Assembly: GCA_021162935.1 (NCBI GenBank)
Contig: JAGGXR010000052.1
Location: 56,631-120,630, forward strand
Reading direction: 5' to 3'
Length of the DNA stretch: 64,000 nucleotides
Origin: Deltaproteobacteria bacterium
GTDB taxonomy: Bacteria; Myxococcota_A; Polyangia; HGW-17; SLPX01
In this document: positions 21,263 through 49,628 of the stretch, one piece after another
How positions within the stretch are numbered: the first letter of the stretch is position 1
How the letters are laid out: the number at the start of each line of letters is the position of its first letter
Made by a program: the position numbers and the translations under genes
Notes under the pieces: model-generated
What the model was told of the DNA's origin: nothing
Databases searched by the model: none
Seen by the model: only the letters and a program-made list of their open reading frames with translations

Positions 21263-24200
21263 ATGGAACGGTACGGTCGATTCATCTACAAACATGCCTT
21301 TGGAATCGTGGTTGCATTCCTCGCGATATCCGCGGCGACCATTTGGATTGGAGTCAACCCTGGCTCCGAAGACGACGTCCTGCGTTTTCTGCCCAAATCG
21401 AACCCTCAGGTCGGATTCTTCTATGACGTGAATCAAAAATTCGGCGCCCTCCACGTCGCCATGGTCGGAATCGAAGCCAAGGATGTGTTCACGAAGGAAT
21501 TCATCACGCGCCTCGGACGAACGACCCAATACCTTCAAGACGAAGTCAAAGGTGTCCACCGGGTGCTGAGCCTGACCAGTGTGGCGGACTTCAGCCTCAT
21601 CAAGGGAAAAGAAGGGGGGCTGCAAACCGGCCAACTCATCGACACGCAACACCTCCCCAAAACGCAGGAAGGCTGGAAGGTGCTCCGTACGAGAGTCATG
21701 TCCAAGCGACACATCGTCGGCCAATTCGTCAATCGGTCGGGAACCGCCGCGGTCATCTTGTGCTTCCTGTCGCCCAAGGGCAACGTGAACAACATCGTCC
21801 AACGAGTCAAGAAGGCGGTGCGAAAAAACTTTCCCAGCTCCAAGATCTATTGGGGGGGCACGCCCTTCATATCGTCCTATATTTTCGCCGTGACGGAAAG
21901 GGACCTGCGGCGGCTGACCCCGTGGGCAGTGGCGGTCATCGTGGTCATCACACTCCTCGTCTTCCGGGACCCGGTGGGCGTGCTGCTCGCATTCGTGGCC
22001 ACCATCTTCGGCGGCCTCGTCGCCTTCTCCGCCATGAAGCTCACTGGCGAAAAACTGAACTTGGTCTTGGGGTCCATGCCGGTCATCCTATTCGCCGTGG
22101 GAAGTGCCTACGGCATTCATTATTTGGTGCGCTACTACCACCTTCGCAAGGACCACTCCACCGAGGCAGCCGTGGCAGGAGCCTTCCGCGAAGTCGGCCC
22201 GGCGATCCTGGCGGCTGGACTGACCACCATGGCCGGCTTCCTCTCCTTCCTCGCCATGGACGTGGACCCCATGCGCAAATTTGGCATCTTCACGGCCCTG
22301 GGGATCGGGGCGGCCCTGCTCGCAGCACTTGCCGTGGTGCCCGCCATCCTCGCTTTGACGGGGCGCACCAGGAAGGAAGTCGATGCGGATAGTTGGCTCA
22401 AACACGCCATGGGGTCCGGATCCGCCTGGGCACAACAACACCGATGGCTCGTGATCCTCATCCTCGTAAGCGGTGGCACCGTTGGCTTCTACTATTCCCT
22501 TCGGGTCAAGCTGGCCGTCGAGACATCGTCCTTCTTCACAAAAGGAAGTGAGCCGGACCTGGCCGACCACTTCTTTCACGACCAATTCGGCGGATCCATC
22601 TACACGCAGCTCTACATCAAGGCCGACCTAGACGACCCCACCGTGCTGCGGGAGATTCGACGCATCTCGGAGATCATCGAGAAACAGAAACTGGTGTCCA
22701 CGGTCCAAAGCGTGGCCATTCCATACAGCCTGGTCAACGAGGCCATGGTGGAGCTGCACCGCATCCCGGACCAACGCAAGCAGGTGCAGACCCTGGCCTC
22801 CTACGTGCTGTCGGATCCCTCGTCGCGGCAGCTCATGACCATGAACCGTAAGGAAGCCCTCGTGCACATCAAGGTGACCACGAGTGAGGCGGAACGGATC
22901 AACCGCTTCATCGCGACGGTTCGCCGCATTCTGAAGAAGGAAGTCGCTCCGTTCTACGTGGCAGTGAATCTGACGGCATCCACACCCGTCAAAGAGAAGC
23001 GAATTGCGGAAAAGGCGCTGGCAGCGCAGACAACAGACCATCTGTTGGCCATCTTGTTGCGATCGGGCGTGACCCTGCCGGCTGAGGCAAGGACGAACCT
23101 GGCCCGAAACCTCAATCGTGCGCTCGCACAGGGCCGCTTCCATGCGACGAAGGCCGATGTCGAGACCGTGGCCAACAAAGTGCGCCGCTATCTCCGGTCG
23201 AAGGAGTGCGTGCTCGCTCTGCCTGCCCCAGGCCCCAAAGGCGATCCGGCCAAGGCCCTGGCGGCTGCCTTGGCGAACCTTGGCCCCGCGGCCAAGGACG
23301 ATGCCAAAGACGATGCAGGCGCCAAGGCCCTGGCGGGCGTGGTGTCCAAGGAGGATGCTTTGACTCTGGTGGCCACAGCGGACCCATACTTGGCGGATGC
23401 ATGGAAACTCCAGGAAAGCAAGAGCCTGGTCCATGCGGCCCTCCAATCCGTGGGCCTGACCCGGTCACGAATCTCCAAAACCGTGCAGAAACAGATCCGC
23501 GTGGCCCTGCTCGATCTCAAAGTACGCCGGGTCGCCGTTCCTGGATCGGTGGCGACCAAGGCCGGCATCATCGGCGAAAAAATTCCCATGCACGTGGTCC
23601 TGACGGGCATGCCTGTCCTCTACCAGGGCATGTCGAAATCGGTCCAGGCAAACCAGATCAAGAGCCTGATCATCTCAGGCATCCTGGTGCTCCTCGTGAT
23701 CGGGCTCGTCTTTCGGTCGGTACGAGCTGCCCTGGTGGGCATCCTGCCCGCAGGCATGACCCTCATGATGCTCTTCGGCTTCATGGGCTTCAAAGGTCTG
23801 TATCTGGATATGAGCACCTCGATGATTGCCTCCATCGCCCTAGGGACCGGCATCGACTATGCCATCCATTATCTCGTCTGGTGGAGGCGACATGCGAGGG
23901 CATCAGCAGGGAAACCGGTTGCCGCGGCCCTCCAGGACGCTTCGGTGGGCGCATCCCATGAGGCCGGCACCGCCATCCTGGCAAACGCGTTGATGGTGGC
24001 GGCTGCTTTCCTCATGCTCACCATGGGAGACGCAGCCCCGCTCAAGACTTTTGGGGCGATGACCGCCACCGCCATGCTCGGAGCGGCCGTTGCCACGTTC
24101 CTGGCCGTACCGGCCCTGGCAGGAAGCGATCTGATCCGTCACTGGGCATGGGTGGGACTCGATCGAAAAACAATATCCGGACATGACGACCACGGAAACG

Positions 24201-24316
24201 GACGCATCGCCTCGGACGACGGGCCTGCGTCGAAAAACGAGTCAAGCAACGAACGACACCGAGACGCCGGTGCTGCAGACCGCAGCACCGATGTGACAAA
24301 GGAGACGGAGTCATGA
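21263..24316 (+). CDS. MMPL / RND-superfamily exporter (two 6-TM bundles with large periplasmic domains)
   Basis: ~1017 aa from MERYGRFIYKHAFGIVVAFLAISA…. Two sterol-sensing/MMPL-type TM bundles (…AVAVIVVITLLVF…LAFVATIFGGLVAF… and …IISGILVLLVIGLVF…MTLMMLFGFMGF…) separated by a ~300-aa soluble region. Confidence 0.8.
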   Translation: MERYGRFIYKHAFGIVVAFLAISAATIWIGVNPGSEDDVLRFLPKSNPQVGFFYDVNQKFGALHVAMVGIEAKDVFTKEFITRLGRTTQYLQDEVKGVHRVLSLTSVADFSLIKGKEGGLQTGQLIDTQHLPKTQEGWKVLRTRVMSKRHIVGQFVNRSGTAAVILCFLSPKGNVNNIVQRVKKAVRKNFPSSKIYWGGTPFISSYIFAVTERDLRRLTPWAVAVIVVITLLVFRDPVGVLLAFVATIFGGLVAFSAMKLTGEKLNLVLGSMPVILFAVGSAYGIHYLVRYYHLRKDHSTEAAVAGAFREVGPAILAAGLTTMAGFLSFLAMDVDPMRKFGIFTALGIGAALLAALAVVPAILALTGRTRKEVDADSWLKHAMGSGSAWAQQHRWLVILILVSGGTVGFYYSLRVKLAVETSSFFTKGSEPDLADHFFHDQFGGSIYTQLYIKADLDDPTVLREIRRISEIIEKQKLVSTVQSVAIPYSLVNEAMVELHRIPDQRKQVQTLASYVLSDPSSRQLMTMNRKEALVHIKVTTSEAERINRFIATVRRILKKEVAPFYVAVNLTASTPVKEKRIAEKALAAQTTDHLLAILLRSGVTLPAEARTNLARNLNRALAQGRFHATKADVETVANKVRRYLRSKECVLALPAPGPKGDPAKALAAALANLGPAAKDDAKDDAGAKALAGVVSKEDALTLVATADPYLADAWKLQESKSLVHAALQSVGLTRSRISKTVQKQIRVALLDLKVRRVAVPGSVATKAGIIGEKIPMHVVLTGMPVLYQGMSKSVQANQIKSLIISGILVLLVIGLVFRSVRAALVGILPAGMTLMMLFGFMGFKGLYLDMSTSMIASIALGTGIDYAIHYLVWWRRHARASAGKPVAAALQDASVGASHEAGTAILANALMVAAAFLMLTMGDAAPLKTFGAMTATAMLGAAVATFLAVPALAGSDLIRHWAWVGLDRKTISGHDDHGNGRIASDDGPASKNESSNERHRDAGAADRSTDVTKETES

Positions 24317-25080
24317 GAAATTCACCGTTCACCATCAAGGCCGGCCTGACCGTGGGTTTGCTGGCCATGCTGCTGGCAGCTGCTCCGGCCAAAGCGAACC
24401 CCCAGGGGGAAAAGGTCATCCGACTCGTGGAGCAGGCCTTTTTGTCCTACAAGGACCAGTTCGGCAAATACAAGTATTTGATCAAAAACCGAGGCGGCGA
24501 CAAGATCATCAAGTTCACCCTATACAACAAGGGAACGAAGCGGCTCATCAAATTCACATACCCAGGAGACGTCCGAGGCCAGATGGTACTCATGCAGAGC
24601 AAGGACGAGATGTACATCTACCTGCCCGCCTATCGCCGAGTGCGCCGGCTCGCGGGCCACGTCCGCAACCAGGGATTCATGGGTTCCGACTTAAGCCTCG
24701 ACGACATGAGCATTGGGAGCTGGTCGAAGGACTACACCACGACCCTGGTCAAGCAGGACGCAAAGTACTGGTATCTCTCCCTGAAAAAGAAGGCGGGCCG
24801 CAACCCTCCCTATCCCAGACTCAAGATGCGGGTCCTCAAGAAGATCCACGAAGCCGACAAAATTGAATACATGAGCCGGTCGGGCCGAGCCCTGCGAACC
24901 CAGACCTTGACGGGTTGGTACTGCCAGGGCAACAGCATCATGTGTGCCGCCAAGACCATTTTGATGATCGACCATCGCCGGGGCAACCACAAGACCTACC
25001 TCTACGAGGTGGAGAGCCGCTTCAACGTGGGTATCTCGAACCGCAAATTCACGATTCGCTACCTCATGCGAGGCGGCTGA
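24313..25080 (+). CDS. Outer-membrane lipoprotein-sorting (LolA-like) protein, partner of the MMPL transporter
   Basis: Signal peptide MRNSPFTIKAGLTVGLLAMLLAAAPAKA. Size and pattern (…FLSYKDQFGKYKYLIKNRGGDKIIKFTLYNKG…MVLMQSKDEMYIYLP…) match LolA-like proteins that commonly follow MMPL genes. Start overlaps the MMPL stop (ATGA). Confidence 0.6.
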   Translation: MRNSPFTIKAGLTVGLLAMLLAAAPAKANPQGEKVIRLVEQAFLSYKDQFGKYKYLIKNRGGDKIIKFTLYNKGTKRLIKFTYPGDVRGQMVLMQSKDEMYIYLPAYRRVRRLAGHVRNQGFMGSDLSLDDMSIGSWSKDYTTTLVKQDAKYWYLSLKKKAGRNPPYPRLKMRVLKKIHEADKIEYMSRSGRALRTQTLTGWYCQGNSIMCAAKTILMIDHRRGNHKTYLYEVESRFNVGISNRKFTIRYLMRGG

Positions 25081-25231
25081 TTTCGAGAATGGATGAACCA
25101 ACGACCCGGACCATGGCGGTCGAGTTCCCGATGGAATCACGAACATCGCGAAACCATCTGCCAAGGACAAGGGCGAACAAGGGTCCCATAACTCTGCCAT
25201 AATCCCCAAACCAACCAGGGAAGGTTCTGCC

Positions 25232-27037
25232 ATGAAATGCAGCACGACAATGTGGACGGCGATCCTGATCGCCTCAATGGCATGGGCGAAAACCGCACAA
25301 GCGCAGATTGAAAAGTCCTGGACCGTGTCCATTCAGTCGGACGTGCGCTACGTGGTGCAGGAAAAGTCCACCAAGGAACTGATTCCAGCCGCCGACTTCG
25401 TGAAATATCCCTATCTGGCAGGCCACAAATATCGCAAGCTCATCTTGGTGCCCACGGGATTTTCGCGAAACGAAAACATCCTACACGTCCGTCTGAGCGC
25501 CGAGACCGACAAACTCAAAGGAGTAGCCGAAGTGGACTTCGTCTGGCTCGGCTACAGCCGGGAAGCGCAGGTCCTCCAAGACCTGACCAAACGGGAAAAG
25601 CTCCTGCCGTTCCGGCTGGAATCGAACGCCCTGTATCTCGACGTGAACGGCTTCATCTTCAAAAACCTCGACCTCCGCATCGGCCAACAGGTCATCTCGT
25701 GGGGCACGGCGGACCAGTTCAACCCGACCTCCAACCTGAACCCGCTCGATCTGGAAGACCCACTCTTGTTCGGCGAACATATGGGCGTCCCGGCGATCCG
25801 CATGGACTACGCCGTCTCGGACGACTGGACGGCGACCCTGGCCTGGGTGCCAATCTTCTTTCCTGACAACCTCCCTGCCACCGCGCCCATCGGTCTGGCC
25901 TCGCCCGACCGAATCCCAGTTCTGGACCAGAAGATGCGGTGGCAGTTCGCCGTGGATCGAGGGCTGGGCGAACTCTTGGCGAACGGTCCCACCAGGGTCA
26001 CCGAGGCCAACCTGGAAAAACCGCCCATGAACATCGGCAACTCCCAGGTGGGATTCCGCATCCGGGGCAAAATCTTCGAGCAGGACATCTCGCTCTCCTA
26101 TTACTACGGTCGTAGCGGCATGCCCCAACCGTCGGTGTCACGCGCCTTCTTCAGGCAAGATGCGAACTACATCGACACCAGGGTCAACCTCATGTATCCA
26201 CGGATGCACGTCGCGGGCCTATCTATGGCCGGCCAAATCCCATGGGCCAAGGCATTGATGAAGAAGAACCCAAAGCTCAAACCCGTGGGCTGGTGGTTCG
26301 AGGCCGCTGCCTTCTTCCCCCAAAAAATCACCATGGGAATCTACCAAAACGACTTCCCTATCGTGGGCACGGGTGAATACGATTATGAAGGCGACGGCGT
26401 CCAGGGAGGCAACCGTCCGACCATCGTGGACACCACGCCATTTTTGAAGTGGACCCTTGGATTCGACTACTCCTTTTCGAACCATTGGTACGCCAATGTC
26501 CAATGGGTCCACGGCTTCCCCGACGAATTCGGTGCAGGCGGATGGCTCTCCAACCTGTGGAGCAAACAGAAGGGCATGGTTGTGGGCAAGTCGTATCTCG
26601 ACTTCGACTACAACGACGACGGCCACAACGACACGGACATCCTGAGTTGCTATGGCTCGGGCCAGCAGGGCCGATGCGTCCACGAAATCGTTCGCCCGAG
26701 ACTCGGCGACTACATCGTGGGCGGCGTGGACTTCAAGTTCAAGAATCAGTCCATGCTCATGCGCCTCTTCTTCATCTTGGACATGAGCGGCTCCTACGAA
26801 CAGTACTGGAAGGGCTCTGCCGACGGCTCCACCGGGAAGCGTGTCAGCGTCTGGCATAACCCCTTTAGTGCCAAAGGCTTTTCCGCCATCATCTACCCAC
26901 AATTTACCTGGGCCGTCGCCGAAGGCGCCGAACTCTCCATCGGCGGTTTCCTCGCTTTGGGCAAGAGCTACAGCCGATTCGGTGACCCTGCCGTGGGCAG
27001 TTCGATGGTCTGGACACGAGGCAAGTTCACGTTCTGA
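25232..27037 (+). CDS. Putative outer-membrane beta-barrel protein (DUF1302-like) in the MMPL/LolA-like cluster
   Basis: Signal peptide MKCSTTMWTAILIASMAWAKTAQA. 601 aa with alternating amphipathic segments, rich in aromatic/Gly residues. Same strand as, and immediately downstream of, the MMPL and LolA-like genes. Confidence 0.45.
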   Translation: MKCSTTMWTAILIASMAWAKTAQAQIEKSWTVSIQSDVRYVVQEKSTKELIPAADFVKYPYLAGHKYRKLILVPTGFSRNENILHVRLSAETDKLKGVAEVDFVWLGYSREAQVLQDLTKREKLLPFRLESNALYLDVNGFIFKNLDLRIGQQVISWGTADQFNPTSNLNPLDLEDPLLFGEHMGVPAIRMDYAVSDDWTATLAWVPIFFPDNLPATAPIGLASPDRIPVLDQKMRWQFAVDRGLGELLANGPTRVTEANLEKPPMNIGNSQVGFRIRGKIFEQDISLSYYYGRSGMPQPSVSRAFFRQDANYIDTRVNLMYPRMHVAGLSMAGQIPWAKALMKKNPKLKPVGWWFEAAAFFPQKITMGIYQNDFPIVGTGEYDYEGDGVQGGNRPTIVDTTPFLKWTLGFDYSFSNHWYANVQWVHGFPDEFGAGGWLSNLWSKQKGMVVGKSYLDFDYNDDGHNDTDILSCYGSGQQGRCVHEIVRPRLGDYIVGGVDFKFKNQSMLMRLFFILDMSGSYEQYWKGSADGSTGKRVSVWHNPFSAKGFSAIIYPQFTWAVAEGAELSIGGFLALGKSYSRFGDPAVGSSMVWTRGKFTF

Positions 27038-27158
27038 TCGTTCGTTTCACCAGGGCCACAGGGCCCGTCTACGCACGAGCCAGCATCCGGACAGAAGCCA
27101 CTTCGGACATCGGGCAACCTCTGGACACCAGCCCCCTTGACGGGCTACTCTCCCCTGG

Positions 27159-27812
27159 ATGGAAATCCTCTCCGGCAAGAAACGCGTGCAACTCGACGAG
27201 CCCGGCTTCGCAGAACGGCTCGCACGACACGACGGACTCTGGATCGACCTGGGCTGTGGCGACGCCAAGTTCACCTTCCGCACCGCCATCCAGCATCCGG
27301 ACATCCTGGTCCTGGGACTCGATGCCGCCCGAGAGCCTATGGTCCCCCAAGCCGTTCGTGCCAGACGTTCCCCAAAAAAAGGCGGCGCCCCGAACCTCAT
27401 CCTCGCCGCCGCCGCCGTCGAAGACCTGCCGGACATGCTCCGCCATCGCGCCGAAACCGTCTCCATCAACTTCCCGTGGGGCAGTCTGCTCCGCGCCATC
27501 GTCATGGCCGAGCAACCGATCCTGGCCTCCATCTGCCAGCTCCTCCGCCCTGCCGGCTCCCTCGACATCCTGCTCAACGACAGCCTTTACGCCCAACCCC
27601 ACGTATATGAAAAGATGAACCTGGTCCGGATCGACCAGGAGCACCTGGAAACCATCACCGCCCCAGCCCTGACCCAATCCGATCTCGACGTGCAGGCCAT
27701 CGAGACGATTCCGAACCACGACATCCCCGTCCACACCTCCTGGGGCCGACGTCTGGCCGACTCCCACCCCGACGGGAAGACATGGCATATCAGCGCCCTG
27801 CGCCAGCCCTGA
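27159..27812 (+). CDS. 16S rRNA (adenine1408-N1)-methyltransferase family protein (NpmA/KamB-like aminoglycoside-resistance methyltransferase homolog)
   Basis: Strong by-eye match to NpmA: K-x-V-x-L…(F)DRVHIDLGTGDG versus …GLWIDLGCGDAK; KKPSKGGLSNVVFVIAAAESLP versus RRSPKKGGAPNLILAAAAVEDLP; SISILFPWGTLL versus TVSINFPWGSLL. It has a class I SAM-binding fold and is ~217 aa, as NpmA/KamB. Confidence 0.65.
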   Translation: MEILSGKKRVQLDEPGFAERLARHDGLWIDLGCGDAKFTFRTAIQHPDILVLGLDAAREPMVPQAVRARRSPKKGGAPNLILAAAAVEDLPDMLRHRAETVSINFPWGSLLRAIVMAEQPILASICQLLRPAGSLDILLNDSLYAQPHVYEKMNLVRIDQEHLETITAPALTQSDLDVQAIETIPNHDIPVHTSWGRRLADSHPDGKTWHISALRQP

Positions 27813-27976
27813 AGCCAATGGCCCCATTGCGGTGCGTTCGTATCACGAAGTCTGCTCATCGCGATTGACGATCGAGTATCTGGGACTATAATCGCGAAAA
27901 CTCGGCAATGAGCGGTCGCCGCGTCGATAAGAATGCTGGCGTCCGAACCGTTCAGCCTGTCGCTTGGTAAGGGATC

Positions 27977-30025
27977 ATGGCGAAGATCGATCGCATACGG
28001 AATATTGGCATCGTGGCTCACATCGATGCGGGCAAAACCACGGTGACCGAGCGTTGTCTGTTCTACACGGGCCGTATCCACCGCATCGGAGAGGTGCATG
28101 ACGGCGAGGCCCAGATGGACTGGATGGTCCAGGAGCAGGAACGCGGCATCACGATCACGGCGGCGGCGACGACCTTTGCCTGGGCCAAGCACGACGTGCA
28201 CCTCATCGACACGCCTGGACACGTCGATTTCACCATCGAGGTGGAACGAAGCCTTCGGGTCCTGGACGGTGCGGTGGTGGTGTTCTGCGGCCGCGGCGGC
28301 GTGGAACCCCAGTCCGAAACGGTCTGGAACCAGGCGGACAAGTTCCGCGTTCCGAGAATCGCCTTCGTGAACAAGATGGACCGGGTGGGTGCGGACTTCG
28401 GACGCGTGGTCGGTGAAATCCGAGAACTGCTCGGGGCCAACCCGATACCCATCCAAATTCCCATTGGAGCGGAGGACCACTTCGAGGGCGTCGTGGACCT
28501 GCTCACCATGGAGGCATACACCTGGACGGGAAATGACGAGGATCCGCCCGAAAAAATCGATATTCCGGCTGATTTGATGGAGCCGGCCGAACAGGCTCGC
28601 GAGGCGATGATCGAAGCGCTGGCCGACCTAGACGACGCCATTGCGGTCAAGTACCTCGAAGGCGAGGACTTGACCGTTGCGGACCTGAAGGCCGCCCTTC
28701 GAAAAGTGACCCTGTCCTACACGGCTGTGCCGGTGCTCTGTGGATCGGCGCTCAAGAACAAGGGCATCCAACCCTTGCTGAACGCGGTCATCGACTACCT
28801 TCCTGCGCCATCGGACCTTCCTCCGATTCATGGCTACGATCCCGCCACCAACGAGACGATCACCAGGAAGCCCCAGGACAGCGATCCGCTCTGCGCCATG
28901 GTCTTCAAGATCGCCATGGACAAGGGCCGCAAGATGGCCTACCTGCGCATCTATTCGGGAAAGGTCACCGAAGGCATGGAGGTCTACAACCCGAGGACCG
29001 GCCACAAGAACCGCTTCTCCAGGCTGCTCAAGATGCACGCGAACCGTCGCGAGAAGCTCAAGCAGGCAGGATCAGGCGACATCGTTGCCGGAATGGGGCT
29101 CAAGGATTTCGCCACGGGCGATACCCTTTGTGAAGCCGTAGCGCCGATTCTTCTGGAACGAATCGATTCGTACGAGCCGGTCATCTCCCAGGCCATTGAG
29201 CCCAGGACCCTGAGCGAAAAAGAAAAACTCGACTTCGCCCTGGCCAAACTCGTCGAAGAAGACCCGACCTTCCAGGTGCGTGAAGACAAAGAAACCGGCC
29301 AGACCATCATCCGAGGCATGGGCGAGCTGCACCTGGACATCATCGTGGACCGGCTCCGCAAGGAGCACAGTTTGGAGGTCCGCGTGGGCAAACCCCAGGT
29401 CGTGTACCGAGAGACCATTTCGGGCCGGGCCGACGCGGAACACGTTTTCCATCGCAAGACCGACGAGGAAGAACTCTACGCCAAGGTACGCGTCGCCGCG
29501 TCTCCGGTCGGCCGCGGCGAAGACAACCGCGTGGAACTGACCGCCGAGCTGCCGGATAACTTTCCTCAGGCCTGCACCGATGCCGCCACCGAGGGCGCCA
29601 CCACCGCACTCAACGGAGGACCGCTCGGCTTTGCCGTGCGCGACGTGCAGATTGACATCACTGACATGGATCCGGGCGAAGGCACCTGCCACGAAGGAGC
29701 CTTCCACGCTGCCTGCAGCCAGGCGGTGCGCCATGCCCTCGAACAGGCGGGCCCCCTGCTCTTGGAGCCCATTATGGATGTCGAGGTCGTCACCCCAGAA
29801 GAACTCGTGGGCGAGGTGATGGGCGACCTGAATCAGCGTCGAGGCCGAATCGAAGCATCCGAGTTCCGGGGCGGCAAGCGTATGATCAGAGCCAAGGTTC
29901 CACTCAAACGCATGTTCGGCTATTCCACGGAACTGAGATCCCTGACCAAAGGACGCGCCAACTTCACCATGACATTCTGGCAGTTCGACACCCCTGAAGG
30001 CAGCTCATCACAAAGGGACATTTGA
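27977..30025 (+). CDS. fusA: Elongation factor G (paralog / EF-G2-like)
   Basis: GTPase motifs [18 protein letters not shown]. Full five-domain length (682 aa): …[27 protein letters not shown]…. Confidence 0.9.
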
Positions 30026-30165: not shown

Positions 30166-30168
30166 CTG

Positions 30169-30241
30169 AGCGGGATACGGGACTTGAACCCGCGACTTTC
30201 AGCTTGGGAAGCTGACACTCTACCAACTGAGTTAATCCCGC
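30169..30241 (-). tRNA. tRNA-Gly (anticodon CCC)
   Basis: The minus strand reads GCGGGATTAACTCAGTTGGTAGAGTGTCAGCTTCCCAAGCTGAAAGTCGCGGGTTCAAGTCCCGTATCCCGCT. It has a 7-bp acceptor stem, a D-loop AGTTGGTAGAG, an anticodon stem TCAGC/GCTGA with loop TTCCCAA (CCC), a T-arm GCGGGTTCAAGTCCCGT, and discriminator U. CCA is not encoded. Confidence 0.85.
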
Positions 30242-30440: not shown

Positions 30441-30494
30441 TCGTTGGTATGCAGAAATGAGGCATGTCGATACGGGAGAAGCGAGCTGGGCACC

Positions 30495-32045
30495 ATGGCG
30501 AACGGATCGATCCATTCACGAGGAACAAGGAACATATCCTGGCTTGTGGGCAGCCCTATCCGCGGCGCCGCGGCGATCACTTCCAGGCCATCGGTGCCTT
30601 TCGTGACCGCTGCATCCCTCATCGTGGTCGGGGCGTCCCTCATCGTGGTCGGGGCCGGACCAGCCCGGGCACAACCGGCGATCAGGGACGATCATTCCCC
30701 GGCAGTCCCCCAGGCCACGTCACCCAACCCATCACAGAAGGCGTGCGATCGGCATGCGCGAATTCGTCTCCGGATTCCCGAGCAGACGGCATCTTCATTT
30801 TGGACCGGTCGATACGGCTGGCTGGACAACCCCGCGCTCCTGACGAGTCACCTCATGGTGACCGGAGGATTCCTGGCCGGCAGGCGCACGGACAGCTACA
30901 AGGGCCTCAGTCTGGATGGTGCGTCCCAGGATGAAAATTCGTCGTCACCGCCGAGTCTGGGAGGCTGGGTTGCGGTGTCGGGCCCAACCGGTCGCCCGGG
31001 CCTGACGGGGCTTCGGGCGGGAATCGGATTCTGGGAAATCGGCGACCAGGACGTCGCCTACCAGGGATCCAGTGTGATCTCCCGGTTCCTGCTGTCCCGC
31101 CTGAAGCGCCGAGAACATGTCGTCACCGCGGCCCTGGCCTGGGCCGGACGGTCCTTTTCGGTGGGCATCGCGTTCCAGGCGACGCTGGCAGAGCAACAGA
31201 TGGCCTGGAAGTTGTGGGCCGGCACCGACCCGCAATGGCCCAAGGCGGACGAGACGTTCGACCTGCCCATGCACCTGGACCTTACGGACCGGTTCATTCC
31301 AGGGGCTTCGGCTGGTCTGGCTTGGCAGCCCACGAGTCGGCTGCAGTTCCAACTCGGCTTCCGCTGGAGGGGGACCGGGCATCTCCAAGGATCGGTGTCG
31401 TCGGGGCTGATTGCCGGTCGGCCGGACATCCCGATTCAGTCGGGTCGGGCGAGCACGCTGGATCCCATGCAGTTTCGTGGCCATCTGGCGGCTCTGCTCC
31501 GTTTGGGACGGGTCCGGCTGGACCTCGCCTTTGCCGTGGACAATCTGGCGCGTCGGCAGACAGTCGCCAAACTGGGATTCAAATCCGCGTCGGGCACCTT
31601 GGACTCGAATCCTTCAGGATCGGATCCTTCGGGATCGATGAGCATGGACATGCCGAATCAGGCGGTGATTCCAGATGCCGCCATGGGAGGAGGCGTTCGC
31701 ATCGGAGGGGATACCACGGCCATCGTCTCCATCCTGCCAAACCGGCTCGCTATCGATGTGGGGATTGGCGTACGGGGTCGCGTGACCGGTCAAGACGACC
31801 CGCTGGACCGAGCCCACCCCATCGTCAGAGCCGGCCTGGCCATCCTGGTGCACAAAGGTCCGGTGAGCGCGGAACTCGGATACAGCGTTGCCTACGGCCG
31901 AATCGATGCAGATGCCGCAAGCTGGACGTCGATCAACCCCACCGGCGGCCCGGACCTGGCCGGGGGACTCGCCGGTCGAACCGCCGTGACCCACGCCGCA
32001 GTCATGACCATCAACTGGGTCTTCCCTGAACATCTGGTGAGGTGA
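30495..32045 (+). CDS. Hypothetical secreted protein, probable outer-membrane beta-barrel
   Basis: Coding-like codon usage with GC-rich third positions. Signal-like N-terminus with an internal 21-bp duplication (ASLIVVG twice). Many alternating amphipathic stretches (…AALAWAGRSFSVGIAFQATLA…, …AGLAWQPTSRLQFQLGFRWRG…, …LAIDVGIGVRGRVTG…, …HAAVMTINWVF). No family recognised. Confidence 0.4.
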   Translation: MANGSIHSRGTRNISWLVGSPIRGAAAITSRPSVPFVTAASLIVVGASLIVVGAGPARAQPAIRDDHSPAVPQATSPNPSQKACDRHARIRLRIPEQTASSFWTGRYGWLDNPALLTSHLMVTGGFLAGRRTDSYKGLSLDGASQDENSSSPPSLGGWVAVSGPTGRPGLTGLRAGIGFWEIGDQDVAYQGSSVISRFLLSRLKRREHVVTAALAWAGRSFSVGIAFQATLAEQQMAWKLWAGTDPQWPKADETFDLPMHLDLTDRFIPGASAGLAWQPTSRLQFQLGFRWRGTGHLQGSVSSGLIAGRPDIPIQSGRASTLDPMQFRGHLAALLRLGRVRLDLAFAVDNLARRQTVAKLGFKSASGTLDSNPSGSDPSGSMSMDMPNQAVIPDAAMGGGVRIGGDTTAIVSILPNRLAIDVGIGVRGRVTGQDDPLDRAHPIVRAGLAILVHKGPVSAELGYSVAYGRIDADAASWTSINPTGGPDLAGGLAGRTAVTHAAVMTINWVFPEHLVR

Positions 32046-32110: not shown

Positions 32111-33802
32111 TCATCTATGTGAGCGTGGCCTCATCCGAAGGTGGGTCCGCCCCCTGGTTCGGGCCGATCTTCGACCTCTGGTGCGGCCTCTCGTGCGGCC
32201 ACGGAGCCGTCCCCTGGTCCGTCGGGCGTTTGTCCGACTGTGGCCGGCTCGCGCCTCGCGCTTCTTCCGCTCGGCTTCCATCCGTTGCTTCCGCTTCGCC
32301 TTGGCCCGCCCAATCCGCCGATCGAGCCTCCCGAGGGCCGCTTCAATCACATCACCTGCCGGCATGACCACCGGATGGGTGACCGTCATAGAGGCCAACC
32401 GTTCCACGAGAGGCACGGTCATGCGACGGAACGCCCCCATCTCCCGAGCAGGAATACCAGGAGCCCGGATCGCCTTGAATTTGAGCGGGTCCACGTACTC
32501 GCCGTTCACCTTGATCCCGAAGTGGAGATGCGGCCCGGTTGATCTACCCGTCGAGCCCACGTACCCGATGACCTGCCTCTGACGCACCGTGACGCCCTTC
32601 TTGATCCCGCGAGCGAACCGAAGCAGGTGCATGTACACGGTCGTAATGTTGCTCTCGTGCTCGACCACGACCATATTCCCTGCCGCCCGGTTTCTGGCTG
32701 CAAAGGCCACTTCACCGTCGGCGGCCGCCCAAACTGGGGTGCCCGATGGCGCAGCAAAGTCCACGCCGAGGTGCGCTCGGTATCGGTGCAGGATCGGATG
32801 GAATCGATGCCGGTTGAACTTCGAAGTGATCTTGGTGTAACGAAGCGGGGTCTTGATGATATTGCGCCGAAGGGAACGTCCACGCTGGTCGAAATATCCC
32901 GTTCTCCCCGATGCGGTCTGGTACCAAACTGCCGTGCTCCGCTTCGTCTTCCCCTCGTACCTGGCGGCAAGGAGACGTCCGTACCGGTAGAAGGAACCGT
33001 CGAGATACTCTTTCTCCAACACGAGTTTGATGATGTCGCCCTTGTGGAGATCCGTGTAGAAGTTAAGGTCCCAGGACAGAGCGCGGATGATGAGGCCGGC
33101 GACCGTGGGCTTTTCCCCAGATTTGCGCACCGAGGCATACAACGGCCCGGTGACCGGAACCCCCACGAGCACGATGCGACGCTCGATGGGCTTCGCCGAC
33201 CGCTCGGCCACAAGCCGGTCGCCCACGCGACGGACGAGATACACCACGGCCGGAGCCGCCCGAAACTCAAACTCGAACACGTGCTTGCCGTCACCGCTGA
33301 CACGAACAGTGAAGGTCTGCCCGGGGCGAGCCCTTCTGAAATTATAAAGAGGAGCCAAGGTGCCGACGATCCGGTCGGTCAGGTGTCGGGTCAGACCAAG
33401 TCGCTTGAACGCCGTGTACAGATTGTCGCCACGCCGGATCTTGCCGGACAGGACGCGGCTGTCCATGTCCGATAGGTCGCCATCCACATGGCTCGTCCCA
33501 TGCTGTGCCCCGCCCACGAGTGCGGCGGGAACGTCCAGATCCACCGGCGACTTTCCGCGTTTACGAAACCGCGCCGCCGCCCCGGCGTGTTTCACCGACC
33601 CGACGACCGCTCTCTTACGGACCTTGACGAATGACTTCCGCCCCCAGACGAACACCCAGAGATTCACCAACACGAGCACCGAAAACACACCAACCACGAT
33701 GAGCTTGACGCGCGTATTCCGAGCCGTCTTACCACGGGTTTTCGGAATCTTCGGTAGTCTGAGTCGGCCATGCCGTCGTGCTGTTCGCCGATTGTACTTC
33801 AT
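32111..33802 (-). CDS. M23-family peptidoglycan metalloendopeptidase with N-terminal TM anchor and Arg-rich C-terminal tail
   Basis: …HLGVDFAAPSGTPVWAAADGEVAFAARNRAAGNMVVVEHESNITTVYMHLLRFARGIKKGVTVRQRQVIGYVGSTGRSTGPHLHFGIKVNGEYVDP carries the HxxxD…HxH M23 motifs. The C-terminal RGRTRGRTRGRR tail comes from a short GC-rich repeat. Confidence 0.85.
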   Translation of the reverse strand: MKYNRRTARRHGRLRLPKIPKTRGKTARNTRVKLIVVGVFSVLVLVNLWVFVWGRKSFVKVRKRAVVGSVKHAGAAARFRKRGKSPVDLDVPAALVGGAQHGTSHVDGDLSDMDSRVLSGKIRRGDNLYTAFKRLGLTRHLTDRIVGTLAPLYNFRRARPGQTFTVRVSGDGKHVFEFEFRAAPAVVYLVRRVGDRLVAERSAKPIERRIVLVGVPVTGPLYASVRKSGEKPTVAGLIIRALSWDLNFYTDLHKGDIIKLVLEKEYLDGSFYRYGRLLAARYEGKTKRSTAVWYQTASGRTGYFDQRGRSLRRNIIKTPLRYTKITSKFNRHRFHPILHRYRAHLGVDFAAPSGTPVWAAADGEVAFAARNRAAGNMVVVEHESNITTVYMHLLRFARGIKKGVTVRQRQVIGYVGSTGRSTGPHLHFGIKVNGEYVDPLKFKAIRAPGIPAREMGAFRRMTVPLVERLASMTVTHPVVMPAGDVIEAALGRLDRRIGRAKAKRKQRMEAERKKREARAGHSRTNARRTRGRLRGRTRGRTRGRRSARTRGRTHLRMRPRSHR

Positions 33803-38126: not shown

Positions 38127-38341
38127 GTCCCACGCTCTCCTGACATTCTGGGCATATCATAAATACATCGATCCGGGAACGGATTCCATGAAATGTCGCA
38201 AAGGCGACCTGCTCCGCCTGTTTTCGAAGACTTGGTTCTGAGCCCGCTTGGGGTATACTGCAGGACAAATCATCATTGCCGTCAGACCTCCTGGGACAGC
38301 ATCGGAGCACGAGACTGACGGACAACCAGCAGGAACCGACC

Positions 38342-40348
38342 ATGAACCATGGCAGATCCACGGCAGGTCGCCGGGCCCGATTGACCAACTGGCTGCTTGC
38401 CACATCGAAGCCGTGGCTCATGCGCAGCCCAGCCATCGTGCTCACCTCCGTGCTCGCTGCCTGTTGGAGCCACAAGCCGCTGTACGAAAGCACAAAAGCG
38501 CACCCGACGACGCCAGCATCCAAGGAGATGCACAAACAAATCCGTCCGGTCCAAATCGTCATGCCTTTGCCCCCCGTCACCCTCTGCGGCGTCCTACCCC
38601 GTCCGGTCCAATTCGCCCTGCCGTTGGCCCCATGGTTCCATGGCCGTCGTTCCACGATCATGGCCAAAGCCCTGGCGAATTTTCAACGACTGGGAGGAAG
38701 GCGTCTGCTGAGACCTGCGTCGCACGCGCCATCGGCCCACACGAAACCTCCCACTGCTTTGCCGACAGACAGGCGCTTCATGCAAGCCGCCGAGGTTCTG
38801 ACTTGGGTCCTGCTCAACCACGCTAGAATCGATGCCCCGCTGCCCGGAGATGCCCTTCGATCTGGTCTCTTGAAGGTGCTCGAACGCGTCGCCCTTAGGC
38901 CTCGATCGCCGGCCTCCATGACCGGCGCCATGGCGGAACTGGCCGATCGAATGGGCGACCAGGTCACAGCAACACATCTGTATCGAATCTACCTCGAAAA
39001 GACCAACGTCCCGGCCAGACCGTCCCAGAAGGGACGTCGGTCGCCGTACTCATGGCACGGAAACCGGGTCCCGCAAAAAGGCCACCTGACGAAGAGCCAA
39101 CGCAGGGCACGAGACATCGAGCAGGGTCGAACCGTCGCACGTTTGTGGCTCGCCCAGTACTTTTTGGCCCACGGTCGTACGGCCGATGCACAGGCATTAC
39201 TGAAAACGACGCAGGCCGCGCTCTCTCCAAGAACGACGCCCAGTCGCACGGACCTCATCACGAAAGTCCTCATGGCCTGGACCACCCTGTCGTCCGACCG
39301 ATTCGTCCGAGCGCTCCATCAGATGTGGCGCGTCTATCGTCTTCAGGCAAAACATCCCGGACTGCTCGACGAAAACGACCGCCTGGCGCTTCTTCAATCC
39401 ATGGTCGTGGCCTACTCGTTGTCGGCACGGGCGGATCGTGCACGTGCCTTTTTTCAGAAAACGCTGCGGTCTGCGGACCAACCTCTCCTTGGACGGCTCC
39501 TGTGGTCCCTGCTGGAACGGTATGAGCAGCGGGGGTGCTTCGACCGGGTGATCCAACTCGGAGACCTGACCAAACTCCCGCCGGCAAAAAGAATCGGAAT
39601 CAATCCAGATCATATCCTCTTGGCGCGAGCGGAGGCATTTCTCAACCTGGCCCGCTGGCCAGACGCAATCACGTCCATCGGTCGACTCACCAACAAGTCC
39701 ATGAAATCGGCGCAACGGCTCATCTGGAGTTGGGCCGTCCTCCTCCACCAGACATTCGTCGGCAGCCTCGCGTTGCCCCAGGCCAAGGCTGCCGATGACC
39801 TGTACCGTATCTACCAACAGACTTCCGGTCTCTCCCAGAAGGAGCAGGATCGAGTTCTCAAGTATCGAGCCGCACTGACGCTCTTCAGGAAACAGGTTCG
39901 GCTAGCAGCAGCGTCGCATGAACGTCAGCCGGCCCCTCGCCCCCAAGGGGCGCTGCCGAAGAGGACCGTCGAAGCAATGCTGACCGCACGGCTCCTGCAG
40001 GCCGCCCACTGCCACGCAGTTTGGAAAAGATCTCACGCGGACGGCCCCATCTCGCTCTTGGTGGAAATGGGCATCGACCCGACCGGAACGGTCATCAGGA
40101 GCCGGATCACGGAGAAGTCCGGTCCGAATCATGCCACAAGGGCCTGCAGCCCGGAGCATACGTCCCTGTGTCATTGCATCCAGCGACGCATCCTAGGATG
40201 GCGATTTCCCTCCTATCGAGCCGCAAATGGTTCCTTGATCGTACGGATCCCTCTGCATTTCTGCCGGACCAGGCGACACGACACGAATTCGGATGGCCAA
40301 GGGAATCATCTGCAAACCACATCTCTCCGTCAGGGGAGGATCCCGTGA
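38342..40348 (+). CDS. Hypothetical protein with a C-terminal AgmX/PglI-type (TonB-C-like) domain
   Basis: Long helical, TPR-like middle region. C-terminus …GPISLLVEMGIDPTGTVIRSRITEKSGPNHATRACSPEHTSLCHCIQRRILGWRFPSYRAANGSLIVRIPLHF resembles TonB-C / AgmX-PglI C-terminal domains. Start is uncertain (38276, 38342 or 38420; possible lipobox LAAC). Confidence 0.4.
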   Translation: MNHGRSTAGRRARLTNWLLATSKPWLMRSPAIVLTSVLAACWSHKPLYESTKAHPTTPASKEMHKQIRPVQIVMPLPPVTLCGVLPRPVQFALPLAPWFHGRRSTIMAKALANFQRLGGRRLLRPASHAPSAHTKPPTALPTDRRFMQAAEVLTWVLLNHARIDAPLPGDALRSGLLKVLERVALRPRSPASMTGAMAELADRMGDQVTATHLYRIYLEKTNVPARPSQKGRRSPYSWHGNRVPQKGHLTKSQRRARDIEQGRTVARLWLAQYFLAHGRTADAQALLKTTQAALSPRTTPSRTDLITKVLMAWTTLSSDRFVRALHQMWRVYRLQAKHPGLLDENDRLALLQSMVVAYSLSARADRARAFFQKTLRSADQPLLGRLLWSLLERYEQRGCFDRVIQLGDLTKLPPAKRIGINPDHILLARAEAFLNLARWPDAITSIGRLTNKSMKSAQRLIWSWAVLLHQTFVGSLALPQAKAADDLYRIYQQTSGLSQKEQDRVLKYRAALTLFRKQVRLAAASHERQPAPRPQGALPKRTVEAMLTARLLQAAHCHAVWKRSHADGPISLLVEMGIDPTGTVIRSRITEKSGPNHATRACSPEHTSLCHCIQRRILGWRFPSYRAANGSLIVRIPLHFCRTRRHDTNSDGQGNHLQTTSLRQGRIP

Positions 40349-42072
40349 TCCCACCCGAAGACAGGCGTACCGACTCCCCAGAGACTCGAGCCGAACCGAC
40401 CCGCCCGCCGATTCTTGGTTTCCGTCGGGTCCTGAGAACCTATCACGTGGGTCTCCTGGTGCTGGCAAGCTACCTGCTGACACGGTTCCTTGCTCGTTTC
40501 GCCAAACCCACCCGGGCGGTGGGAATGTGGCAAAAGGCGCACGAACGAAACGCCCGTCGCATCCACCGGGCTATCTTGGATCTCCAAGGGTTGTTCATCA
40601 AAGTCGGACAACTCATCAGCATCCTGGCCAACGTCCTACCCGAAGGATTTCGTTCGCGACTGGAAAGCCTGCAGGACCGGGTTCCCCCGCATCCCTACGA
40701 AGACGTGGAACGCCGCATCCTGGAAGAATTCGGCCAGAAGCCCGATGCCATCTTCACCGAATTCGACCGCACCCCCCTTGCCGCCGCGTCCATCGGCCAG
40801 GTGCACAAGGCACGCCTCGAAGACGGAACCCTCGTGGCCGTCAAAATTCAGTATCCGGAAATCGACCACGTGGCGCGAGGAGACCTCAAGTTCCTGCGCA
40901 GGCTCGTGGGCTGGATGGAACGGATCTTCCCGGAACATGGCTTTCCTGCCGTGTACAACGAAATTCGGGCTATGGTCCTGGCGGAACTCGACTTCCGCCA
41001 GGAAGCGGACAACCTGACACGCATCGCCAAAAACCTGACCGAAGAACCAAACGTGGCATTCCCGGTGGTCATCGAACGGCTCACCACCAAGACCGTCCTG
41101 ACCACCACGTTCCAGGACGGCTTCAAGGTCTCCGATCACCAGGCGCTCGACGAGGCCGGTATCGACCGGACCAAACTCGCCAAACAGATCATCCATGCCT
41201 ACTGCGAACAAATCTTCGTGCACGGCCTCTACCATGCGGACCCCCATCCGGGAAACCTGATCGTCCGACCCAACGACGATGGCTCCCAAACCGTCGTCTT
41301 TCTAGACTTCGGCGCCGTGGCGACCATCTCCCAAAACATGAAGGAAGGCATCGTCTCCCTCATCATGGGCGCACTCGCCCACGACTCGACGAAAGTCGCG
41401 TCCGCCCTGAAGACCATGGGGTTCATGGCCCGATCAGCCGACCCGGAAACCTATCACCGCATCATCGACTTTTTCCATCGGAAGCTGCATCAGGAAATCC
41501 GGGTGGAAAGTTTCAGTTTCAAGGACATCACGTTCAATCGGGAACGAGGTCTCGAAGACCTCGCGGATCTGAGGAGCATGGATATCACGCTCCAGGACCT
41601 CGCCCGCCAGTTTCACGTTCCCAAGGAATGGATCCTACTCGAACGCACTCTGCTGCTGCTCACGGGCCTATGCACCGAATTGGATCCGAACCTGAACCCA
41701 TCATCGGTGGTTCTGCCTTATGTGAAGCAGAGCGTTCTCGGCGAAAAAGACACCACGACCTTCATGCTCGAAGCGGCCAAGGAGGTCGTTCTGTCCCTGG
41801 CGGCCCTGCCTGGAGAACTGCGTCAGGCCATTGCAATGCTCGAACAGGGCAAGATTTCCATGCGGTTCTCGAACCTGGAACGAAACGTCCAGGACATCCA
41901 GACCCTGGGCAGACAGTTTCTCTTCGGATTTCTCGGCCTGTCCGCCGCAGCCTTCTCCCTCGCCTTCGAGGACCGGGGCATGCACGAACAGTTCGTCTGG
42001 TCCCTGTGGCTCTCGGGTGGGTTCTTCGGCATCATGCTCGTGTCCATCCTCGGCTCCTGGCGCAGACGATAG
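40345..42072 (+). CDS. ABC1/UbiB-family atypical protein kinase
   Basis: …FDRTPLAAASIGQVHKARLEDGTLVAVKIQYPEI…HADPHPGNLIV…FLDFGAV… are the conserved ABC1 kinase blocks. The GTG start overlaps the upstream stop (GTGA at 40345-40348). There are C-terminal TM helices. Confidence 0.8.
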   Translation: MIPPEDRRTDSPETRAEPTRPPILGFRRVLRTYHVGLLVLASYLLTRFLARFAKPTRAVGMWQKAHERNARRIHRAILDLQGLFIKVGQLISILANVLPEGFRSRLESLQDRVPPHPYEDVERRILEEFGQKPDAIFTEFDRTPLAAASIGQVHKARLEDGTLVAVKIQYPEIDHVARGDLKFLRRLVGWMERIFPEHGFPAVYNEIRAMVLAELDFRQEADNLTRIAKNLTEEPNVAFPVVIERLTTKTVLTTTFQDGFKVSDHQALDEAGIDRTKLAKQIIHAYCEQIFVHGLYHADPHPGNLIVRPNDDGSQTVVFLDFGAVATISQNMKEGIVSLIMGALAHDSTKVASALKTMGFMARSADPETYHRIIDFFHRKLHQEIRVESFSFKDITFNRERGLEDLADLRSMDITLQDLARQFHVPKEWILLERTLLLLTGLCTELDPNLNPSSVVLPYVKQSVLGEKDTTTFMLEAAKEVVLSLAALPGELRQAIAMLEQGKISMRFSNLERNVQDIQTLGRQFLFGFLGLSAAAFSLAFEDRGMHEQFVWSLWLSGGFFGIMLVSILGSWRRR

Positions 42073-42103
42073 CCATCGGACGAACACGCATACAGGGCCC
42101 TAT

Positions 42104-45069: not shown

Positions 45070-45234
45070 GACCGAAGTGTGAGTCAAGCGGACAGAAGCT
45101 GTCAAGCTTCGAAGGAACCGATGAAGGCGCGCAATCACGGCCTGGACAAAACACCAGTCTGCGACTACAACCCTCAAGGCCTCGCGCCAATGTGATAGGA
45201 AGCAGCAAGGCGAGCAATCGATTTTGTGAGGACC

Positions 45235-48510: not shown

Positions 48511-48708
48511 TTCCAGCGTCCTACAGTCTGCACGTCGAACTGCGGGTTCCGCGCAAGAACAGGGTACCGTGCCATCAGGTATGCTGGCGGATATGACCTC
48601 CGGTGGACAAGAGGGTGCGACTGTGCGAGCATCCACGACCATGGGAATCCACGGTAGTGACCGCCGCAGGGAGCCCTCGGTCTTGCGGGAACCGCTCTCG
48701 ATGGGCAG

Positions 48709-49617: not shown

Positions 49618-49628
49618 GGAGGGTACGG

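Follow-up and report, generated by a model that had tools for sequence, protein, structure and literature searches.

A divergent NpmA/Kam-family 16S rRNA A1408 methyltransferase homolog in a lineage of uncultivated myxobacteria-like bacteria

Could a chromosomal gene of an uncultivated bacterium encode an enzyme of the kind that confers pan-aminoglycoside resistance, and is such a gene native there or acquired? The question is raised by a 217-amino-acid (aa) open reading frame (ORF) in 64,000 nucleotides (nt) of DNA from a Deltaproteobacteria bacterium (assembly GCA_021162935.1, contig JAGGXR010000052.1, positions 56,631 to 120,630), a stretch referred to below as the window. A first-pass annotation of the window had called the product of this ORF, hereafter the query, a homolog of NpmA and KamB, which methylate N1 of A1408 in 16S rRNA (m1A1408). 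We found that the query is a genuine, divergent member of the NpmA/Kam family of m1A1408 methyltransferases and that its gene has long resided on the chromosome and been passed on vertically in one sub-lineage of uncultivated myxobacteria-like "Deltaproteobacteria". By analogy with the characterised enzymes, the query most likely targets A1408, is catalytically active and confers a resistance phenotype.

Family membership and predicted fold

The Pfam profile PF24675 (NpmA) matched residues 3–203 of the query, corresponding to profile positions 2–203 of 214, scoring 190.5 bits where the cut-off is 60 (E-value 3e-56), whereas the second-best Pfam family, Methyltransf_4, reached only 28.5 bits. 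The ten best sequence matches in the PDB were all 16S rRNA A1408 methyltransferases. Kmr (4rwz) was matched at E = 1.9e-36, CacKam (4x1o) at 9e-36, NpmB1 (7ehf) at 4e-32, NpmA (3mte) at 8.5e-22, KamB (3mq2) at 1.7e-19 and UncKam (7jlz) at 2.4e-18; the first match outside the m1A1408 family was TrmB, at E~0.01. The sequence blocks that the first-pass annotation had matched by eye (HIDLGTGDG, KKPSKGG, AAAESLP and FPWGTLL) are indeed present in NpmA (PDB 3mte/3p2e alignment), and in the MAFFT alignment they pair with WIDLGCGDA, RSPKKGG, AAAVEDLP and FPWGSLL of the query.

How typical a member of the family is the query? In the MAFFT alignment it is 36% identical to Kmr, 35% to CacKam, 28% to KamB and 26% to NpmA. 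These four characterised enzymes are 28–37% identical among themselves, and the query is therefore as typical a member as any of them. UncKam and NpmB1, which represent other branches of the family, are 22–30% identical to the query in a structure-based alignment. A peptide-pattern scan with a single pattern placed relatives in 436 species-level genomes, mostly metagenome-assembled genomes (MAGs) of Acidobacteriota, Actinomycetota, Patescibacteria and Chloroflexota; the closest relative outside the query's own population is just 50% identical.

The predicted structure gave the same answer. The model that AlphaFold2 produced from an alignment of 60 sequences had a mean predicted local distance difference test score (pLDDT) of 95.7 and a predicted template modelling (pTM) score of 0.92, and it showed an N-terminal β-hairpin (strands E2-5 and E8-11) extending the class I core, as is typical of the family. 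The 19 best Foldseek matches of the model in the PDB were all m1A1408 methyltransferases, with template modelling (TM) scores of 0.75–0.92. The model fits NpmA (0.92) and KamB (0.91) about as well as it fits CacKam (0.85–0.90), which supplied the top match (5bw4_B, TM 0.90, E = 1.3e-23); the scores were 0.79–0.88 for Kmr, 0.83 for NpmB1 and 0.75 for UncKam. Beyond the family, the Foldseek E-value fell from 4e-16 to 1e-10 and the TM score to ~0.6, and the matches were generic small-molecule methyltransferases. Thus, the best match is not a generic class I methyltransferase, and the close superposition on NpmA, the family profile score well above its threshold, the family-specific structural matches and the retained residues described below bear out the homology that the first-pass annotation had proposed.

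The gene itself was found exactly where that annotation had placed it. Its ATG start at position 27159 is supported by the alignment of the query N-terminus (MEILSGKK) with the N-termini of homologs (MELLAGKK, MEALLGKQ and MEVLQGKK). The NCBI entry for an identical protein reads [quoted passage not shown]. Four further contigs, from two sets of samples, contain independent assemblies of the methyltransferase locus, which is therefore no artefact of assembly.

Predicted active-site and ribosome-docking residues

Does the query keep the residues on which A1408 methylation depends? The residue checklist was drawn from published mutagenesis of CacKam, with comparisons to NpmA, KamB and Kmr (PMC4705659), and of KamB (PMC2995053, Table 2). 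Residues were mapped by MAFFT alignment, in which the numbering agrees with the published positions, and conservation was judged in an alignment of 22 relatives and in the 60-sequence alignment.

For the binding of S-adenosylmethionine (SAM), the query has D30, G32-C-G34-D-A36 at the GxGxG motif (32–36), D55 and E88, together with T193/S194 at the SAM-carboxylate position just before the second Trp; the roles of the equivalent residues are documented in both studies (PMC4705659, PMC2995053). W107 and W195 form the Trp pair and align with W107/W197 of NpmA, W105/W193 of KamB and W113/W203 of CacKam. N140 is the equivalent of KamB N138, and R197/R198 correspond to R195/R196 of KamB and R205/R206 of CacKam, with R198 at W195+3. 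The basic linkers β1/2 and β2/3, through which the characterised enzymes dock on the 30S subunit (K37, K67, K71 and K74 in KamB; R43, R73, R76, K77 and K80 in CacKam; PMC4705659, PMC2995053), are represented in the query by K37, R67, R70 and K74, and by the additional R69 and K73.

Among the sites where mutation abolishes activity in KamB, NpmA or CacKam (PMC2995053, Table 2; PMC4705659), the query keeps D30, D55, E88, W107, N140, T193/S194, W195, R198 and K37; with the GxGxG motif, it thus has every functional residue that is universally conserved. The 22 relatives show no variation at D30, G32, G34, D55, W107, T193 and W195, and conservation of at least 90% at E88 and R198. In the 60-sequence alignment, G32, G34, D55, W107 and W195 remain invariant, D30, E88 and R198 are conserved in at least 90%, and T193 is no longer listed. 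The Trp pair is therefore invariant in both alignments, and the catalytic and substrate-positioning residues are retained, in agreement with what the first-pass annotation would lead one to expect of a true homolog.

Two of the characterised enzymes are particularly instructive for the comparison. Kmr, the Sorangium cellulosum So ce56 enzyme (PDB 4RWZ/4RX1), is the best sequence match among solved structures (its 36% identity extends over 194 residues), and it is the closest characterised enzyme to the query in a distance tree without bootstrap support, which indicates placement only. Like the query, Kmr is encoded by a chromosomal gene, and its myxobacterial host belongs to a group related to that of the query; this host is described as a cellulose degrader and not as an aminoglycoside producer (PMC2995053). 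The two proteins have D30, D55, W107 and the second Trp in common. On the other hand, Kmr has Q88 in place of E88 and Q196/H197 in place of R197/R198, and it lacks the C-terminal DSHPDGxxW segment found in the query's clade.

CacKam, from Catenulispora acidiphila (PDB 4X1O, 5BW4, 5D1N), is the top structural match, and its sequence aligns with the query without gaps over the first ~190 residues. Its critical residues D36, D61, E94, W113, S201/S202 and W203 correspond to D30, D55, E88, W107, T193/S194 and W195 of the query, and its critical R205/R206, R43, R73 and K80 correspond to R197/R198, K37, R67 and K74. Like the query, CacKam has no Arg of the KamB R201 type. It differs in that its critical K77 is replaced by S71 in the query, in its extended β6/7 linker, a feature specific to CacKam that sequesters W203, and in its actinomycete host.

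NpmA (3MTE, 4OX9), an acquired pan-aminoglycoside resistance enzyme, and KamB (3MQ2), a self-resistance enzyme of a producer, have the same fold, SAM-binding residues and Trp-pair residues as the query, and the query presumably catalyses the same reaction as these two, the methylation of N1 of A1408 in the assembled 30S subunit. They differ from it in the C-terminal region, where H203 takes the place of KamB R201 and the stretch in which NpmA R207 would lie has no conserved basic residue, and in their origin: NpmA is mobile and KamB comes from an antibiotic producer, but the query gene is neither mobile nor from a producer. With UncKam (7JLZ) and NpmB1 (7EHF), functional-looking members from uncultured or environmental bacteria were already known and their structures solved.

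The query's clade also has signatures of its own in two regions that touch the 30S subunit in NpmA, residues 69–74 and residues 200–209. In the first, the β2/3 linker, the motif RKPxKGG has become RSPKKGG throughout the clade, with no change in net charge. In the second, an inserted DSHPDGxxW segment takes the place of the "GSxR" that carries R201 in KamB.

How would such an enzyme act? On the pattern described for NpmA, in which N1 of A1408 is methylated in the assembled 30S subunit (PMC4705659), the query would dock on the mature 30S subunit through the basic surface of the β1/2 and β2/3 linkers (K37, R67, R69, R70, K73 and K74). A1408 in helix 44 of 16S rRNA would be flipped out and gripped by W107 and W195, while R198 would steady the flipped backbone. 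SAM would be held by D30, G32-x-G34, D55, E88 and T193, and its methyl group would be passed to N1 of A1408. The resulting m1A1408 would keep kanamycin-, neomycin- and apramycin-type aminoglycosides from binding, and the organism, as we propose, would thus be intrinsically resistant. We consider it probable that this explanation holds as a whole, that is, that the query is a functional Kam/NpmA enzyme targeting A1408 and conferring intrinsic resistance, encoded by a native, vertically inherited gene.

Several observations weigh against this explanation. Every allele-specific NCBIfam model scored the query far below its cut-off (KamB, 114 bits vs. 350; NpmB, 105 vs. 460; WarA, 101 vs. 305; NpmA, 71 vs. 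470), and the query therefore belongs to the family without being NpmA, NpmB, KamB or WarA, its named resistance alleles. At position 71, the query has a Ser where CacKam has K77, a critical residue in that enzyme (K71 in NpmA and KamB), although R69 and K73 flank the site. The Arg of the KamB R201 type is absent, with H203 at its position in the MAFFT alignment, inside the clade-specific segment (DSHPDGKTW in the query). Across lineages, the methyltransferase is 39–50% identical compared with 52–73% for its neighbours, and this faster divergence suggests weaker constraint. Finally, the authors of PMC2995053 caution against inferring A1408 activity from sequence in a family of such low identity.

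How much weight should be given to the missing Arg? This second downstream Arg (R201 in KamB, R207 in NpmA) is critical in KamB and NpmA but is not universal in the family (PMC4705659, PMC2995053). CacKam has Ala at the position of KamB R201, and no single essential basic residue was found in the β6/7 linker of Kmr, yet both enzymes are active (PMC4705659). In our MAFFT alignment, Kmr also lacks the Arg pair at W+2/W+3. In the query, no basic residue of the DSHPDGxxW segment is conserved across the clade, and NpmA is aligned to residue 202, short of R207. Because CacKam without that Arg and Kmr without the Arg pair both confer resistance, we regard the missing R201-type Arg as a signature of the subfamily and not as a loss of function.

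Could the query nevertheless be a true family member with low, gated or conditional activity, or with another nucleotide or RNA target, and confer no meaningful aminoglycoside resistance? The clade-specific changes in the two 30S-contact regions (RSPKKGG, and DSHPDGxxW in place of "GSxR" after the β6/7 linker) and the faster divergence of the methyltransferase are what such a protein might show, and control does vary within the family, since Kmr binds no SAM without the 30S subunit and CacKam sequesters W203 (PMC4705659). On the other hand, conservation both in the clade and in the wider family extends to the Trp pair that sandwiches A1408, to the SAM-binding residues and to R198, the model superposes closely on both NpmA and KamB, and the m1A1408 methyltransferase literature consulted here names no member that acts on another target. 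We therefore consider altered activity unlikely and favour a functional A1408 methyltransferase.

Descent and genomic setting of the gene

Is the gene native to its genome? Directly upstream of it, and on the same strand, lies an export module made up of genes for an MMPL/HAE3-type resistance-nodulation-division (RND) exporter and for LolA-like and DUF1302 proteins (Table 1). The exporter matched the NCBIfam models of HAE3, MMPL and HpnN-like lipid transporters best, but none of these matches reached its cut-off. The genes neighbouring the methyltransferase in the window were compared by tblastn against 90 loci. A scan of metagenome contigs with the DUF1302 alignment returned three weak loci only; it was replaced by a protein search with contig look-ups, through which the DUF1302 loci were gathered.

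Table 1. Features of the methyltransferase locus (window coordinates)
Feature	Position	Strand	Basis or remark
MMPL/HAE3-type RND exporter	about 21263-24316	+	Pfam, NCBIfam
LolA-like protein	24313-25080	+	Pfam, NCBIfam
DUF1302 protein	25232-27037	+	Pfam, NCBIfam
DUF1302-methyltransferase gap, 121 nt	27038..27158	+	Without recognisable promoter, terminator or regulatory RNA
NpmA/Kam-family 16S rRNA (adenine1408-N1)-methyltransferase homolog	27159..27812	+	ORF, Pfam PF24675, PDB matches, AlphaFold2 model, residues
Near-consensus sigma-70-like promoter, TTGACG-16-TATAAT (11/12)	27865..27892	+	Consensus match only
Elongation factor G (EF-G) gene	27977..30025	+	TIGR00484 EF-G equivalog, 855.6 bits vs. 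cut-off 659.4
tRNA-Gly(CCC)	30168..30241	-	ARAGORN; Rfam RF00005, 70.8 bits

The synteny loci comprised the window itself (21263-27812) and loci L005, L007, L008/L009, L010, L011, L094 and L095. In all eight lineages whose DUF1302 protein is at least 52% identical to that of the window, DUF1302 stands directly upstream of the methyltransferase, and it is preceded by the genes for the LolA-like protein, MMPL, HU and BKACE wherever the contigs reach. The order of the whole block (BKACE, HU, MMPL, LolA-like, DUF1302, methyltransferase) is the same in 8/8 lineages as far as the contigs extend, with gaps of 27–160 nt. Furthermore, the identity of the methyltransferase tracks that of DUF1302 across lineages (Spearman 0.98, n = 7).

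In more distant relatives, the MMPL/LolA-like/DUF1302 module occurs without the methyltransferase. This is the case in two further lineages (L096 and L097) and in Polyangium aurulentum (L098, CP079217), whose DUF1302 proteins are 41–48% identical to that of the window. The presence of the methyltransferase behind the module in eight lineages and its absence from these more distant ones fit one ancient insertion followed by vertical descent, and the simplest reading is that the gene was inserted a single time at the 3' end of the MMPL/LolA-like/DUF1302 block. The idea that the methyltransferase is an integral part of the export module was rejected, since the module stands without it in the three module-only genomes. 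With 640 DUF1302 homologs at E<=1e-30, the MMPL/LolA-like/DUF1302 trio appears as a widespread stand-alone module in Myxococcota-like genomes.

The composition of the DNA and the search of plasmids agree with a native gene. GC content is uniform across the window, and the GC content at third codon positions (GC3) of the methyltransferase is 0.80, inside the range of its neighbours (0.70–0.81); a recent horizontal transfer detectable by composition was therefore rejected. A tblastn search of 72,556 plasmids returned no homolog, although relatives as distant as npmA might escape such a search. With the synteny in eight lineages and the co-divergence with DUF1302, these results sustain the earlier claim that the gene is native and not mobile.

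How might the gene be transcribed? In the 121-nt gap between DUF1302 and the methyltransferase, we found neither a promoter-like site nor a terminator-like site on the + strand. An Rfam scan returned nothing but tRNA, with no family in the gap, and a 128-nt region upstream of the methyltransferase folded no better than its shuffled versions (z = -0.93). Since the gap thus contains no promoter, terminator, Rfam family or stable fold, the methyltransferase may be transcribed by read-through from the DUF1302 module.

Could it instead be the self-resistance gene of an aminoglycoside producer, as KamB is in Streptoalloteichus tenebrarius? KamB-type enzymes have this role in actinomycete producers (PMC4705659), and an exporter module does lie directly upstream. 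However, no aminoglycoside biosynthesis genes (2-deoxy-scyllo-inosose synthase, or a cluster of sugar aminotransferases and glycosyltransferases) were found within the 64 kb. According to Pfam scans, the main ORFs of the window are housekeeping, signalling and envelope genes only; apart from the methyltransferase locus, they encode Lnt, glycogen phosphorylase, a BKACE enzyme, a phospholipase D (PLD)-type enzyme and an M23 peptidase, and also a sigma factor, a GGDEF protein, a PAS histidine kinase, a Ser/Thr kinase and an FHA-GAF-sigma54 activator; ribD/ribE/ribBA are present as well. The exporter, an MMPL/HAE3-type RND protein accompanied by LolA-like and DUF1302 proteins, belongs to a kind of module linked to lipids and hydrophobic compounds, the module occurs in relatives that have no methyltransferase, and the downstream genes differ in every lineage. 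A producer's self-resistance gene is thus very unlikely, and the self-protection function suggested by the first-pass annotation is unsupported because the 64 kb hold no genes for making an aminoglycoside.

A still less probable alternative is that the methyltransferase forms a ribosome-targeting functional pair with the downstream EF-G, for example, a co-regulated translation-protection module. The two genes share a strand, with 164 nt between them, and each encodes a protein that acts on the ribosome. However, the EF-G passes the canonical equivalog model (Table 1) and fails the ribosomal-protection models (392 bits with the Tet model vs. a cut-off of 775). A near-consensus promoter-like site lies between the methyltransferase stop and the EF-G start, which suggests that EF-G is a transcription unit separate from the methyltransferase. 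EF-G adjoins the methyltransferase in the window's own population only and is absent from that position in all other lineages, where the downstream gene is for a PAS histidine kinase or an AbgT transporter, or else for an RsmD-like methyltransferase, with CoaD next in line. The EF-G was therefore rejected as a functional partner.

The earlier description of the context, with an export module upstream and EF-G and tRNA-Gly downstream, holds as far as the arrangement goes. Nevertheless, the adjacency of EF-G and tRNA-Gly is incidental, given that it is confined to this population and that EF-G has its own promoter-like site.

Least probable of all is a resistance gene of recent acquisition that might be mobile and had perhaps integrated close to tRNA-Gly: a tRNA gene, a common kind of integration site, does lie 2.3 kb downstream, and npmA itself is mobile in Gram-positive bacteria (PMC12271512), but Pfam detected no transposase, integrase or recombinase domains in the main ORFs of the window, GC and GC3 are native, the plasmid search was negative, the nearest relative from outside the population reaches no more than 50% identity, the eight lineages share one insertion point behind DUF1302, the methyltransferase co-diverges with DUF1302, and neither the tRNA nor EF-G adjoins the methyltransferase in any other lineage.

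Some further features of the downstream region were observed. In one relative (GCA_053940445.1, L008 2343-4321), a gene for an RsmD-like (Cons_hypoth95) 16S rRNA methyltransferase begins 13 nt after the NpmA-like gene and is followed by coaD, which places two rRNA methyltransferase genes back to back amid housekeeping genes. The EF-G gene of the window stands outside any str-operon context, and its product is called as 676 or 682 aa in other assemblies, with one residue difference. Next to the tRNA-Gly gene, positions 30165-30146 of the minus strand form a terminator-like hairpin.

Farther from the locus, an ORF of 533 aa at 30444-32045 (+) has no Pfam or NCBIfam match, and other assemblies give it a length of 516 or 508 aa; the varying length calls and an identity of 98.5% in one assembly (L002) suggest a variable region within the population. 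The M23 peptidase, at 32111-33802 (-), has a Csd3-like domain and a long, Arg-rich, low-complexity C-terminal tail (RTRGRLRGRTRGRTRGRRSARTRGR). The region 38276-45906 contains long ORFs of 690, 607, and overlapping 660 and 826 aa without a Pfam match; amid these, a 556-aa protein at 42104-43774 (-) has a cytochrome c7-like multihaem domain. The Ser/Thr kinase, of the eukaryotic type, and the FHA-GAF-sigma54 activator lie at 46675-51437. Genes of both kinds are common in Myxococcota, and their presence would be in keeping with the affinities of the DUF1302 homologs to Polyangia.

Meaning for the organism and the family

What would the enzyme do for its host? One tentative and rather doubtful possibility is that m1A1408 is a constitutive, lineage-wide and anciently vertical rRNA modification, perhaps expressed by read-through from an envelope lipid-export operon. 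If this were true, the bacteria would have an intrinsic, ancient, pan-aminoglycoside-insensitive ribosome and not a resistance gene of the usual kind, in a sedimentary or hydrothermal-type habitat and with no producer genes nearby. In that case, the changes in the RSPKKGG and DSHPDGxxW loops could be signs that the clade recognises the 30S subunit in a distinct way.

For the family, the query leaves the understanding of the mechanism unchanged. It is a candidate for resistome catalogues, and allele-based tools would miss it, because every allele-specific model scores it below its cut-off. What it adds is a new, well-supported, divergent branch of the m1A1408 methyltransferases, to which uncultivated myxobacteria-like bacteria contribute at least eight lineages. 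This branch and the spread of relatives over 436 genomes reinforce the view that the capacity for A1408 methylation, and with it for pan-aminoglycoside resistance, is widespread and ancient in environmental bacteria.

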